Source: Chiloscyllium plagiosum (lineage: Eukaryota). Taken from it: DNA of 20,000 nt. Where the stretch lies: positions 73,409,088 through 73,429,087 of the forward strand of contig NC_057718.1 in the NCBI RefSeq assembly GCF_004010195.1, read 5' to 3'. A program made the position numbers and the translations under genes. Shown one piece after another: positions 875-20,000 of the stretch. How positions within the stretch are numbered: position 1 is the stretch's first letter; every line of letters begins with the position of its first letter. Under the pieces are notes generated by a model. That model saw nothing but the letters and a program-made list of their open reading frames with translations. It searched no databases and was not told the DNA's origin.

Positions 875-1153
875 AGTCATACAGTCATACAGATGTACAG
901 CACAGACCCTTCGGTCCAACTCATCAATGCCAATGAGATATCCTAAAATAAATCGAGCCCCATTTGTCCACATTGGGCCCATATCCCTCTAAACCCATCC
1001 AGATGTCTTTTAAATGTTGTAATTGTACCAGCCTCCACCACTTCCTTTTGCAGCTCAATCCATGCACGCACCACCCTCTGCATGAAATGTTTCCCGTTTG
1101 GTCCCTTTTAAATCTTTCCCTTCTCACCTTAAACCTATACCCTGTAGTTTTGG
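875..1153 (-). mobile_element. 5'-truncated CR1 3'-end fragment inserted antisense into the first CR1
   Basis: It is the reverse complement of the 3' end of the CR1 at ~16500-16796. AGTCATACAGTCATACAGATGTACAGCA corresponds to the tail TGCTGTACATCTGTATGAC, and CTCACCTTAAACCTATACCCTGTAGTTTTGG matches CCAGAACGCGAGGGCATGGGTTTAAGGTGAG. Confidence 0.9.
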
Positions 1154-1478
1154 CAAGCATGCAGAAGAGGTTTACCAGGATGCTGTCTGGATTGGAGAGT
1201 ATGAACTATAAGGAGAGGATAGAAAAACATGGGTTGATTTCTCTAATGCAGAAGAGGTTGAAGAGAGACTTGACAGAAATCAGTAAAATTTTGAGATCCA
1301 TAGTTACAGTTGACGGTCAGAATCTTTTTCCCAGAGTTGAAATGTATAAAACTAAGGCAAGAGGGAGAAAGTTCAAAGGAGATGTGAGGGATAAGTTTTT
1401 TTTTCAAAGTTTGTGAGAAGATTTGTAGCTCGGGTGCTCGTTGCTGTAGTTCTGTTCGCCGAGCTGGAAGTTTTTGTT

Positions 1479-1518
1479 GCAAACGTTTCGTCTCCTGTCT
1501 AGGTGACATCCTCAGTGC
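1479..1518 (-). ncRNA. Minimal type I hammerhead ribozyme motif (mirror copy)
   Basis: The minus strand reads GCA-CTGAGGA-T-GTCACCT-AGAC-AGGAGAC-GAAA-CGTT-TGC, with intact CUGANGA and GAAA cores. Confidence 0.7.
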
Positions 1519-1558
1519 TTGGGAGCCTCCTGTGAAGCGCTTCACAGGAGGCTCCCAA

Positions 1559-1598
1559 GCACTGATGATGTCACCTAGACAGGGGATGAAACGTTTGC
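1559..1598 (+). ncRNA. Minimal type I hammerhead ribozyme motif
   Basis: GCA-CTGATGA(1562-1568)-T-GTCACCT-AGAC-AGGGGAT-GAAA(1588-1591)-CGTT-TGC. Stem I is GCA/TGC, stem II is a hairpin, stem III is the palindrome ACGT, and the predicted cleavage triplet is GUU. Confidence 0.7.
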
Positions 1599-1850
1599 AA
1601 CAAAAACTTCCAGCTCAGCGAACAGAACCACAGCATAAGATTTTTTTACACAGAGAATTTTAAGAACATGGAATGCACTGTCGGGGTGGTGGTGGAGGAC
1701 ACAGATACGATAAAAGTTTGAGGTACTTTTAGATAGGCACATGGATATAAAAGAAATAGAGGGATATGGACCAAAAGTAGGCAGAAGGGATTAGTTTAAT
1801 TTGATGTTGTGTTTGGCAGTTCCTGTGTTGAACAGTTCTATGTTTTATGT

Positions 1851-7099: not shown

Positions 7100-8075
7100 T
7101 TGACAGTGCATATTGTGACTGTGCTTTGTCAGAGTGAGTGACCTCCTCTGAGGAGATTAAATCTTCCTCCAGCATTCACCTGCTGTGAGGCTGAGGTACC
7201 TGTGGAAGAGGTACAAGACATAAATGCTTCATTGTCATCACTGTACACATTTTCAGTTTTCAATGTTTACTACCATGAATCACCTGATGAAGGAGCGTCG
7301 CTCCAAAAGCTAGTGTGCTTCCAATTAAACCTGTTGGACTATAACCTGGTGTTGTGTGATTTTTAACTTTGTACACCCCAGTCCAACATCGGCATCTCCA
7401 AATCATTGCTACCATGAAGTTAACATGAGTGAATGTTGTGTGTTACAAGACTGTGGGATGTTTAATTCTGTCTTTAGGTATTTGGAGAATCCATCTCTTC
7501 ATTGTTAATGCCCAGGCTTGTTGATTATCAATTATTCTCCAGTGCCTCCGGTATTCAAAATGCAGTTGACTGGAAGGTCATCTCCAGTTCTCTCTTCCAT
7601 TGAGAAAAAGGAAACTCTCAGTGTGAGAACTGAAATGTTTTGAGAGGATGGATGCAAATATTTGTGGAGAGCTATTCTGAGAAATTTAATGTCATTGTAT
7701 TAATTTAAAAGTTAATGTCAGTGATGATCAGATGAGTTTGTGAGATGAGTCAAATGAGATTGATAGATATAAGCATAAGGTATGGCATGTGTGAAAGTTT
7801 GGGAAGGCAGAGTGAGGTGCCTGAGGTTAGTTGCAATTAGAATTTAGATGAATGCAACATGCCTTTCCTATGCTAATAAAGGCTCTTGACCTCTTTTGAC
7901 AACTGCATACAGGAACATGGGACTAGACATCTGCAGCTTACCTCCTCAAGCCACGTTTGACTGTTTGCTTGTTTCTGGAGGAGATTCCTCCTCATACTCA
8001 GGAAACAGAATCTCCCTGTAGGTCCTGACAGCCCACAACATCATGTCTGGAGATGGAATTCTTAATTGTGGTCCT
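7100..8075 (-). pseudogene. Decayed Myb/SANT-like (MSANTD-type) DNA-binding protein gene, probably from a PIF/Harbinger transposon
   Basis: The minus strand across frameshifts gives MMLWAVRTYREILFP...TSKQ..VA/EEVSCRCLVPCSCMQ/CQKR (~8045-7890). A second segment gives RTGDDLPVNCILN..EALE (~7595-7535), resembling the TGGG motif. An acceptor TCTTCCACAG lies at 7209-7200. This is by-eye similarity only, and the 3' limit is uncertain. Confidence 0.5.
7280..7405 (+). mobile_element. Short PLE/retrozyme-like insert beginning with a hammerhead motif
   Basis: It has a perfect 10-bp TSD, CTACCATGAA, at 7270-7279 and 7409-7418 (13 bp with one mismatch). The motif is CAC-CTGATGA(7284-7290)-A-GGAGC-GTC-GCTCC-AAAA-GCTA-GTG, with the GAAA core mutated to AAAA. 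Confidence 0.8.
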
Positions 8076-9424: not shown

Positions 9425-10282
9425 TATTATGGACCAGACTTGACCCTCTCAAAATATTTTAAGCAGATAGCCTCAACCCTAACTTTTTCTTCATGTGAAG
9501 TGCATGTTCCAGATGTGATGTGACTGGTCAAACCACTCAACATTCAGCAGAACACAGTTTATTTAAACACTATAGTTAAAATGCAAAAAAAAGGAATTTA
9601 GAATGATTAACTATTGAAAAACCTAACCAAATAATAGATATAGTAGCTATTACTAATTATCGGTTTCAATATAGTAACATTGCATAAACACACCCCTTGG
9701 CAAAAGGTAAATTCGGATGCAGATTACATACAGTTCTCTAATCCAGGAAGAAACAACATCAAGGGAGATTTCAGAGTATGTAGCAGCTAGGAATCATTCA
9801 CTGAAGCTTCCAACCCTTCTGGGACCCCAGACAGCTTCTGACTGCTCCAGCTAAAATAAATCTCGAAAGCCTGGTCTGTGAGAATTGTGTTGAGAGTGTG
9901 GTTTTGGAAAAGCACAGCAGGTCAGGCAGCATCTGAGGAGCAGGAGATTCGACATTTTGGACAAGAACCCTTCATCAGGAATCAAATTCCTGGAGAAAGG
10001 CTCTTGCCCGAACCTCGATTCTCCTGCTCTTCAGATACTGCTTGACCTGCCGTGCTTTTCCAGCACCACACTCTTGACTCTGAACTCCAGCATTTGCAGT
10101 CCCCACTTTCTCCCTGTGAGAATTGGCCACCCCTCTTGCATTGTTACAACTGTTTAAAAAAACCCAAATGCCTCATAAATTGTTGACTTAGGTCATCTGC
10201 GGTTCGGCATCTCTGCCTTTACAGCCTCACTTCAAAAAAATCCAGAACAAAATAACCTTTTCAAAGTGACAGCATCGTTACA
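9425..10282 (-). mobile_element. Solo LTR (gypsy-type, family different from the 10768 element), ~620 bp without the nested insert
   Basis: Termini are T(A)TTATG... and ...CGTTACA (TGTAACG start on the minus strand). Flanks AGGA (9421-9424) and ATGA (10283-10286) form a 3/4-matching TSD. AATAAA lies on the minus strand at 9563-9558. There is no coding sequence. Confidence 0.6.
9888..10113. mobile_element. PLE-derived head-to-head inverted repeat with degenerate hammerhead motifs, nested in the solo LTR
   Basis: It has a perfect 12-bp TSD, CTGTGAGAATTG, at 9876-9887 and 10114-10125. The arms are ~9893-9982 and 9986-10074 around a CAA spacer (roughly 80% identical). The minus arm reads ATTC-CTGATGA-A-GGGT-TCTT-GTCC-AAAATGTC-GAAT and the plus arm ATTC-CTGGAGA-A-AGGC-TCTT-GCCC-GAACCTC-GATT. 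Confidence 0.82.
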
Positions 10283-10489: not shown

Positions 10490-10616
10490 ATAAAAGAAAA
10501 ATATTGCGAATGCTGCAATTTTGATATAGTAACAGAAAATACTGGAGAAACTCATCAGGTCTGGCAGCAGAGTTACCATTTCAAGTTTGATATAACTCTT
10601 CTTCAGAGTTTCTGAA
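10490..10616 (-). mobile_element. Older PLE-like remnant with degenerate hammerhead motif
   Basis: The minus strand reads CTGAAGA(10606-10600)-A-GAGTT-ATATCA-AACTT-GAAATGGT, then GCTGCCAGACCTGATGAGTTTCTCCAG, similar to GCTGCCTGACCTGCTGTGCTTTTCCA in the 9888 element. A small inversion, TTCAGA-GTT-TCTGAA, lies at its 5' end. Confidence 0.6.
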
Positions 10617-10767: not shown

Positions 10768-11535
10768 TGTTATGAAATTGAAGATGTGTAGTGTACCTTT
10801 AAAAGAGAGTGAATGCAGTTTTACACTGAGATCTTACAAGCACCTGTCATACAACTAGCTAGCAGTCTCAGACTGTACTTGAAAATTGAAAATATGTAAC
10901 ATTTGGTTGTGAAACAAAAACCTGAGGTTTGGTTGCTGTTTTCATAACAATTTGAATTTAACCAATCAGTTTAAATTATACCCCAGCATACTAAAACCCA
11001 ATGATGTTTGAATTTATTGTTTTTTCCAACCTCGAACCAATGAGACAATCCAATGTTTGGGGTATAAAGAAGCAGGCATGTTGAAAGTTAGGCAGAGAGT
11101 AACTGCCATCTTGAGAGAGATTGCCATTCAACACACTCTATAAAAGGTACACTTTTCACATGAAACATCTTTGCAGTAAAGAGTAGAAGACTACCCAGGA
11201 AAATCTTCAGCTGAAAGAAGGAGGACACCATAGATGACTGCAGCTGTGTGGTTTTGAAATTAAATTGATGTAATTTTATATGGGTTGTTATTGGGACAGT
11301 ATATTACTAAAGCGTTGGAGGCAGATAACAAGCAGTAAAGGGAAAGGAGGCTTAGAGTTGTAAATAGTTGTTGTTTCATATTCACTTTTAGAGTTAAAGA
11401 ATAAATTGATATTTATTCTTTAAATAGTGGAATTTGAGAGTTACTCTGTCACTCATACATCAACAGATTTCAAGGTGAGGTGAGGTTGTTTGGGTGTTTT
11501 TAATTAGCCGAGGGGTTCATTGCCATGTCGTAACA
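10768..11535 (+). repeat. 5' LTR (768 bp)
   Basis: It starts TGTTATGAAATTG and ends GTCGTAACA (TGTTA..TAACA terminal inverted repeat), and is a direct repeat of 18699-19467. Confidence 0.95.
10960..11070 (+). promoter_or_regulatory. Putative LTR U3 promoter (CCAAT boxes plus TATA box)
   Basis: There are several CCAAT motifs (AACCAATCAG, CCCAATGA, AACCAATGAG, TCCAATG) followed by TATAAA at 11063-11068, and TATAAA is also kept in the 3' LTR. AATAAA lies at 11400-11405. Confidence 0.55.
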
Positions 11536-13773: not shown

Positions 13774-14093
13774 GGGCAGCACAGTGGCTCAGTGGTTAGC
13801 ACTGCTGCCTTACAGCACCAGGATCCCAGGTTTGATTCCAGCTTTGGGTGACTGTCTGTGTGGAGTTTGCACATTCTCCCTGTGTCTGCGTGGCTTTCCC
13901 CTGGATGCTCCGGTTTCCTCCCACAGTCCAAAGATGTGCAGGTCAGATGAATTGGCCAGGCTAAATTGCCCATAATGTTAGATGCATTAGTCAGAAGGAA
14001 GTAGGTCTGGGTGGGTTACTCTTCGGAGGATCGGTGTGGACTGGTTGGTCTGAAGGGCTTGTTTCCTCACTGTAAGGAATCTAATCTAATCTA
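13774..14093 (+). mobile_element. tRNA-derived V-SINE (HE1-like), near full length, nested in integrase
   Basis: A-box TGGCTCAGTGG (13785-13795), B-box GGTTTGATTCC (13829-13839), V-domain-like CTGTGTGGAGTTTGCACATTCTCCC...CTCCGGTTTCCTCCCACA, a CR1-like 3' end and an (AATCT)n tail. Confidence 0.92.
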
Positions 14094-14812
14094 AGTATAT
14101 CAGACTGTGTTGCCAGACAGGAAGTGTTATGGGTGGCGCATGAACTATCAGTAGGAGGTCACCTAGGTGTGAGGAAGACTCAGGCTAAGGTACAAAAACA
14201 TTTCTATTGGCTTGAAATGAGCAAGCATGTGGTTAACTTTTGCCATTCATGTCATATATGCCAAATGATAAGTAAGCCACAGGCAGTGGTAAAACCAGTA
14301 CCATTGTTGCCAATTCCCACATTTGAAGAACCTTTCACGCAGCTTATGATTGATAGTTTAGGTCCCCTCTCTAAAACTAAAAGTGGAAACCAATGCTTGC
14401 TAACCATAATGGATGTGTCTACCAGATTTCCAGAGGTAGTTCCATTATGGAGCATTAATGCTAAAAGGATGGTAGAGGAATTAGTAGCTTTCTTCACTTG
14501 GTACATGCTATCCAGAGAGATTCAATCATACAAAAGTCTAATTTTACTGTGAGGGTGTTTAAGAAAGTCATGGAAAGCTTAGGCATATGGTACTTTAAAT
14601 CAAGTGTGCATCACCCTGAATCCCAGGGAGTTTTGGAAGGCATCAGACTATGAAGACCATGTCAGGATTATCCAAATGATTGGGATAAAGTTATCCCATT
14701 CATATTGTTTGCCATGAGAGATGCCCTAAATGAATCTACTCAATTTACTCCCTTTGAGTTAATACTCGGGCATGAAGTGAGAGGCCCTTTGAAATTAATT
14801 TTTAAAAAGTGG

Positions 14813-16796
14813 TAGAGAATGCTGGATGGCGAGAGAAATTGAGGGTTAGGTTAAGAAAAAGAAGGAATCATATGTCAGCTATAGATAGGATAGATCGAGT
14901 GAATCCTTAGAAGAGTATAAAGGCAGTAGGAGTATACTTAGGAGGAAATCAGGATGGCAAAAAGGGGACATGAGATAGCTTTGGAAAATAGGGCTAAGGA
15001 GAATCCAAAACGTTTATACAAATACATTAAGGACAAAAGGGGAATTAGGGAGAGAATAGGGCCCCTCAAAGATCAGCAAGGCAGCCTTTGTGTGGAGCTG
15101 CAAGAGATGGGGAAGACACTAAATGAGTATTTTGCAGCAGTGTTTATGGGAGAGAAGGGCATGGAAGATATAGAATGTGGGGAAATAGATGGTGACATCT
15201 TGAAAAATGTCCATATTACAGAGGAGGCAGTGCTGGATGTCTTGTAAAGTATAAAAGTGGAGAAATCCCCAGGTCCTGATCAGGTGTACCCCAGAACTCT
15301 GTGGGAGCTAAGGAATTCATTGCTAGGCATCTTGCTGAGATATTTTTATCATTGATAGTCACAGGTGAGGTGCCAGAAGGCTGGAGGTTGGTTAACGTGG
15401 TGCCACTGTTTAAGAAGGGTGGTAAGAACAAGCCTATAGACAAGTGAGCCTGATGTCAGTGGTGGGCAAGTTGTTGGAGGGAATCCTGACGGACAGGATT
15501 TATATGTATTTGGAAAGGCAAGGACTGATTAGGGATAGTCAACATGGCTCTGTGTGTGGGAAATCATGTCTCATGAATGTATTGAGTTTTTTGAAGAAGT
15601 AACAAAAAGGATTGATGATAGCAGAGGGGTAGACGTGATCTATATGGACTTCAGTAAGGCGTTCATCAAGGTTCCCCATGGGAGATTGATTAGCAAGGTT
15701 AGATCTCATGGAATACAGGGAGAACTAGACATTTGATACAGAACTGACTTGAAGGTAGAAGATGGAGGGTTGTTTTTCAGACTGGAGGCCCGTGACCAGT
15801 GGAGTGCCACAAGGATCGGTGCTGGGTCCATTACTTTTCGTCATTTTTCTAAATGATTTGGACATGAACATAAGAAGTATGGTTAGTAAGTTTGCAGATA
15901 TCACCAAAATTGGAGGTGTGGTGGACAGTGAAGAAGGTTACCTCAGATTACAATGGGATCTTGACCAGATGGGCCAATGGGTTGAGGGGTTTAAATTAGA
16001 TAAATGTGTGGAGTTGCATTTTGGGAAAGCAAATCTTAGCAGGACTTATACACTTCATGGTAAGTTCCTAGGTAGTGCTGCTGAACAAAGAGACTTTGGA
16101 GTGCAGGTTCATAGCTCCTTGAAAGTAAAGTTGCAAGTAGATAGGAAAGTGCGGAAAGCATTTGGTATGCTTTCCATTATTGGTCACAGTATTGCGTATA
16201 GGAGCTGGGAGGGCATGTTGCAGCTGTACAGGATGTTGGTTAAGCCACATTTGGAATACTGCATCCAAATCTGGTCTCCTTCCTATTGAAAGAATATTGT
16301 GAAACTTGAAAGGGTTCAGAAAATATTTACAAGGATGTTGTCAGGGTTGGAGGATTTGAGCTATAGGGAGAGATTCAATAGGCTGAGGCTGTTTTCCCTG
16401 AAGCATCAGGGGCTGAGGAGTGGCCTTATAGAAGTTTATAAAATCATGAGGGGCATGGATAGGGTAAATAGAGAACATCCTTTCCCTGGGGTGGGGAGTC
16501 CAGAACGCGAGGGCATGGGTTTAAGGTGAGAGGGGAAAGATATAAAAGACCTCAGAGGCAATTATTTTAAGCAGAGGGTGGTGCATGTATGGAATGAGCT
16601 CCAGAGGAAGTGGTGGGGGCTAGTAAAGTTGCAACATTTAAAAGGCATTTGGATGGGTACATGAATAGGAGGGGTTTGGAGGGATATGGGCCAGGTGATG
16701 GCAAGTGGGACTAGATTGAGTTGGGATATCTGGTCAGCATGGATGAGTTGGACCAAAGGGTCTGTTTCATGCTGTACATCTGTATGACTCTATGAC
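14813..16796 (+). mobile_element. 5'-truncated CR1 LINE (ORF2 RT plus 3' UTR), nested in integrase
   Basis: KSPGPDQVYPRTL, YMDFSKAF.KVPH, SGVPQGSVLGP, KFADITKIGG, LEYCIQIWSP and LERVQKIFTRML, with tail CTGTATGACTCTATGAC. Integrase sequence stops at ...LKLIFKKW and resumes with ...DYVLEVRERL. Confidence 0.95.
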
Positions 16797-17269
16797 CGAA
16801 GTTGGAGATCTCTGGATTATGTATTGGAGGTGAGGGAGAGATTAAATCATTTAGATGAGTTAGCTAAACAGACCTGAAGAGGGCACAAGATAGAATGAAG
16901 CAGGTGGCAGATAAAAACTCTGAAATTCGGATGTTTTCCCATGGGGATTAATATTAGTTTTGTTAGCAGTGATAGGAGATCCCTTCAAAGACAGGTTTAG
17001 AGGTCCATATCAAATTGAGAAAAGGTTGAGTCTGGTAGAGATGCTGGATAGAAAAAAATTACATCGAGTATGTCATGTGAATATGCTGAAACATTGTTAT
17101 AATAGAGAGAAGGAACTGGAGAAACAGGTGTTAGTTACTGTCCCGCAGAAAGAGGAATCAAATCTAGATGCCGTGGAGTTTGATGTACCTCAAAATACAT
17201 TAAACAATGAGGAAGCAGGATAGGTTAGTGAACTACCTGCCTCAGCAGCAAAGAAACCAGTTAAAATGA

Positions 17270-18698: not shown

Positions 18699-19467
18699 TG
18701 TTATGAAGTTGAAGGTGTGTACTGTACCTTTAAGAGAGAATGAATGCAGTTTTGCATTGAGAGCTTACAAGCACCTGTCATATAACTAGCTAGCAGTCTC
18801 AGAGTATACTGGAAAATTGAAAATATGTAACATTTGGCTGTGAAACAAAGACTTGAGTTTTGGTTGCAGTTTTCACAACAATTTGAATTTAACCAACCAG
18901 TTTAACTATGTCCCAGGATACTAAAACCCAATCAAGCTTGAATTTATTGTTTTTACCAACCTCGAACCAATGAGACAATTCGATATTTGGAGTATAAATA
19001 AGCAGACATTTTGAAAGTTAGATGAGAGTAACTGTCATTTAGAGAGAGACCATCCTTCAAAACATGTCTATCAAAGGTACATTTTTCACATGAAACATCT
19101 TTGCAATAAAATGCAGAAGACAACCCAGGGAAATCTTCAGCTGAAAGAATGAGGACACCATAACTGACAGCCACTGTGTGGTTTTGAAATTAAATTGATG
19201 TAATTTTAATATGGGCTGTTATTGGAACAGTATTTGTTATAGAGTTGGAGGCAGATAACAAGCAGTAAAGGGAAAGGAGGTTTAGAGTTGTAAATAGTTA
19301 TTGTTTCATGTTCATTTTTAGAGTTAAAGAATAAATTGATATTTATTCTTTAAATAGTGGAATTTGGGAGTTCTCTGTCACTCATATGTTAACAGACTTT
19401 GTGATGAGGTAAGCTTTTATGAGTGTTTGGTTTCATTAACAGAAGGGTTCATTGCCGTGTTGAAACA
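18699..19467 (+). repeat. 3' LTR (769 bp)
   Basis: It starts TGTTATGAAGTTG and ends GTGTTGAAACA, with about 9 mismatches to the 5' LTR in the first ~100 bp (by eye). Confidence 0.95.
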
Positions 19468-19934
19468 ATAGCACTGAACCTGTGGGAGGTAGCACTTTGC
19501 ATAGTTTTCCTCAAAGTAAAGTGCATCATTGAGAGGAAATATGAGCTGCCAGTCATGTATCTCCAATTATGGCATTCTGTTCCCCTGAAAACTGTGAACC
19601 TATCCTTGCAGGGATGGGGGAATTGCTACTGCTTCCGTATGCTCACTCACAAGCTCTCCCATGATGCCTTTGAGCCTAGATGGCTCAGGTTTGTCATGAG
19701 TCTGCTGTCCAGATGCAGGCTCATCCTCTGAGGCTTTAACTTCTGGGTTCACATGCAGGGGGAAGTGGAGAGCCTCGGCACTTCTGGATTATCCATTGGA
19801 ACTTCAAGGAGGCCTGTGAGTGGCTTTTCCTCCCTATGAGTGTCTGTAGGAAACACCCTTTCTTCCTGAGAGGAAGAGGCACCTAGGGTCAGGTCAAGGT
19901 TCCCTGTCGCTCACTTGCTTTGCCGTAGAAATAT

Positions 19935-20000
19935 AGAGCTGGAAATGTGTTGCTGGAAAAGCGCAGCAGGTCAGGCAGCATCCAGGGAACAGGAGAATCG
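19935..20000 (-). mobile_element. PLE-derived repeat of the same family as 9888-10113, cut by the window edge
   Basis: GCTGGAAAAGCGCAGCAGGTCAGGCAGCATCCAGGGAACAGGAGAATCG matches 9905-9951 (TTGGAAAAGCACAGCAGGTCAGGCAGCATCTGAGGAGCAGGAGATTCG). Confidence 0.8.

Follow-up and report, generated by a model that had tools for sequence, protein, structure and literature searches.

A fold-back insertion of Penelope-like element termini carrying two opposed minimal hammerhead motifs in the genome of Chiloscyllium plagiosum

The spacer-less palindrome described here, from a 20,000-nucleotide stretch of Chiloscyllium plagiosum DNA (the window, to which all positions below refer), is very probably a dead-on-arrival, doubly 5'-truncated insertion of an abundant family of Penelope/Poseidon-type elements, in which two pLTR ends stand head to head within a target site duplication (TSD), at an AT-rich site of an older LINE. 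The identity and orientation of its two arms, their termini, the TSD and the presence of a palindrome native to the element at the centre are plain from the comparisons given below. The coordinates of the features are collected in Table 1.

Table 1. Features of the insertion and of its host sequence in the window (PLE, Penelope-like element; C3, the hammerhead position of that number).
Feature	Positions	Strand	Remarks
Host LINE, decayed 3' part, RT-bearing type	1151–1401	+	Left of the insertion; 163/247 identical to 16306–16568
TSD, left copy	1391–1404	+	AT-rich, T run at its end; pairs with 1635–1647
PLE "tail", 37 bp	1405–1441	−	One-sided 3' extension of the left arm; ends at the outer family 3' terminus, +105 from the ATG
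PLE ORF, first 35 codons	1405–1509	−	ATG formed by A9, the extra U and G10.1; open to the arm end
Left arm, 5'-truncated pLTR end	1442–1538	−	Sense is the minus strand
Minimal type-I hammerhead motif, left arm	1479–1518	−	C3 = 1515; extra U at 1508; G10.1-C11.1 kept; predicted cut 1482/1481
PLE ORF, last 14 codons and stop	1499–1543	−	Other frame; stop at the stem II tip; mirror at 1534–1578 (+)
Junction palindrome native to the element	1534–1543		6 bp (1536–1541) or 10 bp (1534–1543) by subfamily; the copies overlap there
Right arm, inverted, without tail	1539–1635	+	Stops at the inner family 3' terminus, about +68 from the ATG
Minimal type-I hammerhead motif, right arm	1559–1598	+	C3 = 1562; G10.1-U11.1 wobble; predicted cut after 1595
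TSD, right copy	1635–1647	+	Matches the left TSD copy
Host LINE, resumed	1648–1849	+	Right of the insertion; 1668–1849 aligns 112/179 to 16589–16771

The inverted repeat (1442–1538 and 1539–1635) has arms of 97 nt that are 95% complementary with a spacer of 0 nt; its five mismatched pairs are 1511/1566, 1493/1584, 1490/1587, 1460/1617 and 1448/1629, and complementarity collapses past position 97 (A1635 is common to the arm and the TSD, and the arm length is 96 nt if this base is given to the TSD, as in the earlier note). The RNA fold of 1405–1650 has an energy of −188.7 kcal/mol (z = −26.5), a value that none of 200 shuffled sequences reached. The insertion spans 1405 to 1634/1635 (its size is given as 243 bp), and the two copies of the ~13-bp TSD, 1391–1404 and 1635–1647, differ by one substitution and by one T in length. 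An earlier note on this DNA had proposed a palindrome without spacer, with five mismatches and a TSD of ~13 bp, all of which the inverted-repeat and TSD alignments bear out; its range for the palindrome, 1405..1634, is right for the arms at 1442–1635 and wrong for 1405–1441, a 37-bp one-sided extension that has no partner in the right arm in the complementarity comparison. Both flanks of the insertion are colinear in local alignment with a longer LINE copy at 16306–16771, which carries RVT_1, and both alignment scores exceed those of all 100 shuffles; blastn of the flanks against the same long copy gave no match, and it was the more sensitive local alignment that did. Contigs of the host family leave the stretch at 1401 (a loose end behind 1401) with letters that resemble those from 1648 onward. 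By its motifs, the host LINE would be of CR1 type. Immediately to the left of the palindrome, this host LINE also contains a nested LINE 3' piece in inverted orientation (869–1153).

The identity of the arms comes from the proteins that they encode. The left arm, together with nine upstream codons, is identical at 40 of 44 positions to residues 10–53 of P0003 (two matches among three candidates), a 656-aa protein named from Chiloscyllium punctatum that has an RVT_1 match (E 3.9e-11) and a DKG motif. In the other frame, the 14 C-terminal residues are identical to the end of P0016 at all 14 positions in the left arm and at 13 of 14 in the right arm; P0016 is 88% identical to P0003 over their overlap (37% of length), and in it the RT is followed by a VVY-CxxC-YIG segment (VVY-CxxC-YIG-R-EH). 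The ORF's ATG (1507–1509) and stop codon (1499–1501) both lie inside the hammerhead motif, and each arm thus has the feature of a PLE pLTR in which ORF end, hammerhead and ORF start overlap. These comparisons support the reading of the arms as pLTR ends of an EN+ Penelope-like element with a PLE-type RT. The RT and the endonuclease are linked through two overlapping predicted proteins rather than in one intact ORF, and the Pfam GIY-YIG profile (PF01541) matches the segment in three of seven proteins scanned (P0007, E 1.8e-4; P0009, 0.008; P0121, 0.024), all below the Pfam cut-off of 22.6 bits; the same scan gave no GIY-YIG match in P0016, P0010, P0005 or P0006. The parent ORF would end in a C-terminal GIY-YIG endonuclease, apparent by alignment and weak by profile.

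The PLE origin suggested in the earlier note has in this way gained direct protein evidence, the N-terminus of an RT protein and the C-terminus of an RT/GIY-YIG-type protein, and its term "ORF-less" is apt for the RT and the endonuclease and inapt for the arms, each of which retains the ORF's stop and start codons. A DNA transposon or MITE with symmetric TIRs, the identity that the note had named as fatal to its reading, is rejected, since the two ends here lack symmetry and the arms encode the termini of a PLE ORF. It is likewise extremely unlikely that the palindrome moves as a non-autonomous unit of its own, whether MITE-like or copied whole in the manner of a retrozyme: a TSD on its borders and long inverted arms would suit such a unit, but the arms are asymmetric, one alone having a tail, they encode the ends of a PLE ORF and do not form a tandem, there is no second copy within the window, and copies of the family pass its centre into normal upstream sequence. 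The non-LTR retrozymes (Li et al. 2026, bioRxiv 10.64898/2026.07.22.740005) are, like this locus, non-coding, PLE-derived and equipped with type I hammerheads, but they are described as head-to-tail tandems able to form an active dimer, whereas the motifs here are head to head on opposite strands; membership needs at least two head-to-tail units on one strand, and this candidate was also rejected.

An extra Zn-finger in the RT-endonuclease linker is given as a mark of Neptune and Nematis (PMC8557442). The linker held only 0–2 Cys in all five proteins checked, and by this cysteine criterion, which is not a phylogeny, the family would be of Penelope/Poseidon type (as against Neptune, Nematis and Naiad). 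The best full-length relatives of the shark PLE protein are 48–50% identical to it, and the closest include flatworm proteins (Dicrocoelium, 50% over 94% of length; Schistosoma, 48%; comparison of P0003, P0005, P0006 and P0011), a likeness by which transfer is not implied. P0005 begins with a peptide resembling that of the window, and the 35-aa peptide had a single, low-complexity-like match, P0124, among the 50% representatives. Exact-pattern scans of viral contigs (twice) and metagenome contigs (twice) returned 0 loci each and no other flanked DNA copy.

To place the termini within the family, four runs (X1, X11, X18 and X21) were aligned to 1120–1538 at 84% likeness. Depth over 1400–1538 is orders of magnitude greater than in the least repetitive flank bin (contig runs, organisms A and B), contig depth not being equal to copy number. 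The family has two 3' ends. The outer one is marked in all four runs by loose ends before 1403–1405 with AT-rich flanks of low agreement (those before 1403/1404 are the basis for the end of the tail), and the inner one, in the RNA run, by loose ends that precede 1440 and 1445; among the element pieces listed, 5 of 19 end at 1441–1445 and 2 of 19 at 1394–1400, after which come at least 95 unlike letters (the contig pieces listed are a selection, 24 of 22,290). Measured from the ATG, the outer end is at +105, the inner end at ~+68 and the cut site 28 nt on, and the end of the right arm is the mirror of the inner family 3' end. At 1444/1633 both arms have the same letter, from which the family majority differs (71% of depth in X1 and 99% in X11), and both arms therefore come from one subfamily. 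No strand-change joint is present among the 15 joints listed (of 59).

The centre of the insertion is a palindrome that the element possesses in its own right. Beyond 1537, family copies go on with ordinary upstream sequence (three of four runs have loose ends behind that position), and in them the palindrome is 6 bp long in the X11/X18 form and 10 bp long in the X21 form and, by implication, in the P0003 and P0016 frames, so that the two copies overlap by 6–10 bp. The arms carry the majority letters at 1468–1482, which points to the 6-bp form and does not settle the matter. Perfect palindromes of at least 6 bp are centred on 1.3% of window positions and those of at least 10 bp on 0.12%. These observations bear on the idea that the centre is simply the 5' end of the RNA, where the RT ran off and the ends were joined, the native palindrome being incidental. 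Window copies at 7284 and 9978 do begin in a similar manner, ~4 nt before C3, but the centre here is 23 nt upstream of C3, so the idea fits those two copies better than this one; moreover, family copies and RNA reads share upstream sequence past the centre (three of four runs), no pile of RNA ends is listed there, and a chance landing on the palindrome centre has a probability of ~1% or less. We consider an origin at the RNA 5' end improbable.

Inverted pLTRs with tails, junction palindromes, pairs of hammerheads on opposite strands and Penelope siRNA are all already in print. In Pen2a_Av (Arkhipova et al. 2013, PMC3846280) the inverted pLTR shares an overlap of 15 bp with the direct one and falls 37 bp short of full pLTRs; one end bears a tail of 31 bp, the TSD has 9 bp, and palindromes occur at the junctions. 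This element and its relatives (PMC3846280, PMC8557442) share with our locus a shorter, overlapping inverted pLTR, a one-sided tail of 30–40 bp, a short TSD, a pLTR that includes the first ORF codons and a palindrome at the inverted junction; the corresponding PLE layout features here are the 37-bp tail, the inverted arm at 1539–1635, the ~13-bp TSD and the AT-rich target. The locus differs from them in that its units are cut to ~100–135 bp with nothing between, its TSD is ~13 bp rather than 8–10 bp and its overlap is 6–10 bp rather than 15 bp. Craig et al. 2021 (PMC8557442) called the way in which PLEs form inverted repeats and tails unresolved. For Poseidon of Anolis carolinensis (Frangieh et al. 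2024, PMC11167929) it is reported that the ORF starts at stem II, that the cut is 26 bp on, that RT starts at +111–118, that the tail corresponds to what lies between two start sites, and that both target strands are cut and extended. Poseidon and our locus have in common the stem II ORF start, a cut 26–28 nt on, an element end at ~+105 to +118, a tail lying between two RT start sites, an AT-rich target and no RNA ends seen at the cut site; they belong to different families and hosts, and the likeness is one of layout, not of protein sequence.

The best mechanism, and on balance a probable one, is that two reverse-transcription starts were joined at the native palindrome. The element's RT-endonuclease would nick both target strands ~13 bp apart, two short cDNAs would be primed, one from each internal start site (+105 and ~+68), the cDNA 3' ends would anneal through the self-complementary 6–10-bp site, and fill-in would give a spacer-less palindrome with one tailed arm, in which the ribozymes would ride as passengers while the copy decayed neutrally. 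In its favour, the end of the right arm coincides with the second natural 3' end of the family, and both termini, the native junction palindrome and the geometry of Anolis Poseidon agree; a second family with the same layout in the window (~9887–10112, below) was also counted for this explanation. Against it, the depth step at the inner terminus (1441/1442) is inconsistent, being seen in X1 and X21, absent in X18 and reversed in X11, and one junction cannot separate joining from snap-back. In the latter, a single cDNA would fold back at the native palindrome and copy itself, and resolution by the endonuclease would leave the one-sided tail. Snap-back has been published for head-to-head PLE junction palindromes (PMC3846280), the tail has been ascribed to endonuclease resolution (PMC8557442), and it too predicts a junction at the native palindrome and a subfamily letter common to both arms. 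However, it offers no obvious cause to stop at the second natural 3' end, which corresponds to an RT start site in Poseidon (PMC11167929), and a loop-less hairpin with a stem of 3–5 bp would be a poor primer. Snap-back is thus a possible but rather unlikely origin of this copy.

More tentatively, the joining of two starts may be put in the form that the locus could be the smallest trace left when a dimeric PLE protein carries out double target-primed reverse transcription, the cDNAs being annealed at the self-complementary site of the pLTR. If true, this would explain the inverted pLTR, the one-sided tail and the junction palindrome in one step and would replace the self-priming model, and every such insertion would bury its own ribozyme and could make family-wide dsRNA. 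The combination of double priming with annealing was not found in the open-licence literature searched. The link between the two family termini, the native palindrome and two-strand priming is testable. The locus itself matters little, being one of very many Penelope-type stubs in the genome; its value is that of a clean specimen, which makes a sharp prediction for the Poseidon in vitro system (PMC11167929) and for a genome-wide count of junctions. The whale shark paper (PMC8455134) does no more than list Penelope as present.

Each hammerhead motif has a stem I of 3 bp, the box CUGANGA, one additional U between A9 and G10.1, a stem II of 7 positions that contains one mismatch and closes in a loop of 4 nt, and then GAAA, ACGU and U17. 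Both arms have the CUGANGA and GAAA boxes, U16.1-H17, the palindromic 15.2-16.2 and the extra base 9/10.1, and the conserved G10.1-C11.1 pair is kept in the left arm and is G-U in the right arm. In the window, a strict descriptor of the minimal type-I motif gave two matches with 0 mismatches and one with a single mismatch (7284), and it found no match in any of 12 resampled windows. The earlier note's two outward-facing minimal hammerhead motifs are recovered by this descriptor at C3 = 1562 (+) and 1515 (−), and the ACGU stem III, the GUU triplet at 1593–1595 and the 3-bp stem I are all as it described. The check by covariance or motif search that it had recommended gave a divided answer: the strict descriptor finds both motifs, but Rfam has no hammerhead match for the palindrome or for one arm alone, and the predicted hammerheads are thus called on motif and structure, not on Rfam. 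Sub-threshold Rfam microRNA models matched the hairpin only, which is an artefact of any long stem, and a microRNA was rejected. Free folding of single arms gives no reliable hammerhead fold (48-mers, z of 0.26 and −0.53), as expected because the motifs lack stem III, and so neither supports nor refutes a hammerhead.

The minimal motifs of Cervera and De la Pena (PMC4209133) are marked by the extra base, the G10.1-C11.1 pair and the palindromic 15.2-16.2, and are reported there to be uncleaved as monomers and cleaved at a low level as dimers; dual motifs on opposite strands, about 100–700 bp apart, are also described. The motifs here agree with them in being of type I, without stem III in the monomer, with a palindromic 15.2-16.2, a long stem II and an unpaired base between 9 and 10.1. 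They differ in that stem I has 3 bp (4–5 in Schistosoma), the C3 positions are just 47 bp apart (~100–700 bp between those dual motifs), the right motif has G10.1-U11.1, and U17 creates an 8-nt self-complementary stretch. The duplex of this lengthened stretch has an energy of −5.3 kcal/mol as against −1.7 kcal/mol for the 4-bp active duplex, the cofold minimum in both arms is the 8-bp alternative duplex, and the 8-nt duplex would tie up A13, A14 and the scissile base. The ribozymes were said to be "intact", which is so for the boxes in both arms and not so for the G10.1-U11.1 pair of the right arm or for U17, which favours the inactive duplex. Among the variable places listed for family copies (40 of 88 rows), position 17 varies only between U and C, and none of the 10 listed in 1405–1538 falls in the boxes. 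The RNA reads are enriched for a related C17 subfamily, which also differs at 1468, 1470 and 1474 (112 of 214 reads versus ~5% of DNA-run depth). A C at this position would abolish the 8-nt self-complementary stretch, and the more expressed subfamily may have the better ribozyme.

Transcription through the insertion would be expected to mask both motifs. The hairpin has a calculated energy of ~−178 kcal/mol on either strand versus ~−5 for the hammerhead helices, and the antisense arm is transcribed first in both directions; read-through RNA would thus make the antisense arm before the motif and lock the latter in a duplex of ~97 bp. The masking proposed in the earlier note is supported, as a prediction, by these folding energies and by the antisense-first order. 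Since the motifs lie on opposite strands, the cis dimer on which minimal hammerheads depend is also out of their reach. Transcripts of the family do exist: 431 reads were found, with a depth over the element of 93–222 versus 14–31 by direction, or ~8:1 for the hammerhead strand (under the direction convention of the mapping), and with read directions near 1:1 in the host flanks. Only 19 of the 431 reads reach a likeness of 99% or more, and in 1246–1259, the flank bin with the least repetition, the RNA depth is 0, although the RNA sample is ~2% of a polyA single-cell run and absence of signal in it is weak evidence. The family-level RNA reads of this ~2% show no listed pile of RNA ends at the cut site. 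In a check for A-to-I editing, A>G and T>C places were not in excess in RNA over DNA (11 and 8 versus 12 and 5), and no editing signal is separable from family variation.

It is very unlikely that the locus is functional, as an siRNA-yielding or ADAR-edited hairpin or as a ribozyme switch held by its antisense. A read-through transcript would form the ~97-bp duplex and the family is transcribed ~8:1 from the hammerhead strand, and Penelope inverted repeats yield siRNA in transgenic Drosophila (PMC3681739, in which siRNA from such repeats and the dsRNA idea are already in print). On the other hand, its changes look neutral (two of five are CpG transitions, and one hits the conserved G10.1-C11.1 pair), its surroundings are a field of decayed repeats, the RNA depth in bin 1246–1259 is 0 (~2% of the run read) and there is no A>G or T>C excess in RNA over DNA.

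The word "young" in the earlier note overstates the case, as 5 of 97 positions differ between the arms, two of them by CpG transitions. The left-arm letters at 1448 and 1493 are private, versus 98–99% of family depth. At the epaulette shark mutation rate of 7 × 10^-10 per base per generation (PMC10587355), three non-CpG changes in 194 bases correspond by our own arithmetic to ~2 × 10^7 generations, a rough figure that depends on three events, has a wide interval and is affected by RT errors. This is not a recent copy but simply one of those with less decay.

Other hammerhead-bearing copies are present in the window. A second head-to-head palindrome (~9887–10112, within 9875–10124) belongs to a different hammerhead-bearing family and has arms of ~90 bp (9893–9982 and 9986–10074), a 3-nt centre, a ~38-bp tail on its right arm and a 12-bp TSD; it is more decayed than the palindrome at 1442–1635, and another copy of this 9893 family (19921–20000, minus strand) runs off the end of the window. 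A single, non-inverted copy of a third family (7269–7417), flanked by a 10–11-bp TSD, starts 4 nt before a minimal hammerhead (C3 = 7284) in which G12 is changed to A, and a decayed hammerhead-like copy of a fourth family lies at ~10490–10615 on the minus strand (C3 = 10606). With copies at 1442, 7284, 9893 and 10606, there are therefore at least four hammerhead-bearing families in these 20 kb. The window also contains two LTRs (10768–11535 and 18699–19467) that are ~7.93 kb apart and 77–95% alike by block; between them is the decayed body of a Gypsy-type element, in which pieces of an integrase zinc finger and of RT are present, interrupted by a LINE (~14810–16800) and a SINE-like piece (~13777–14085).
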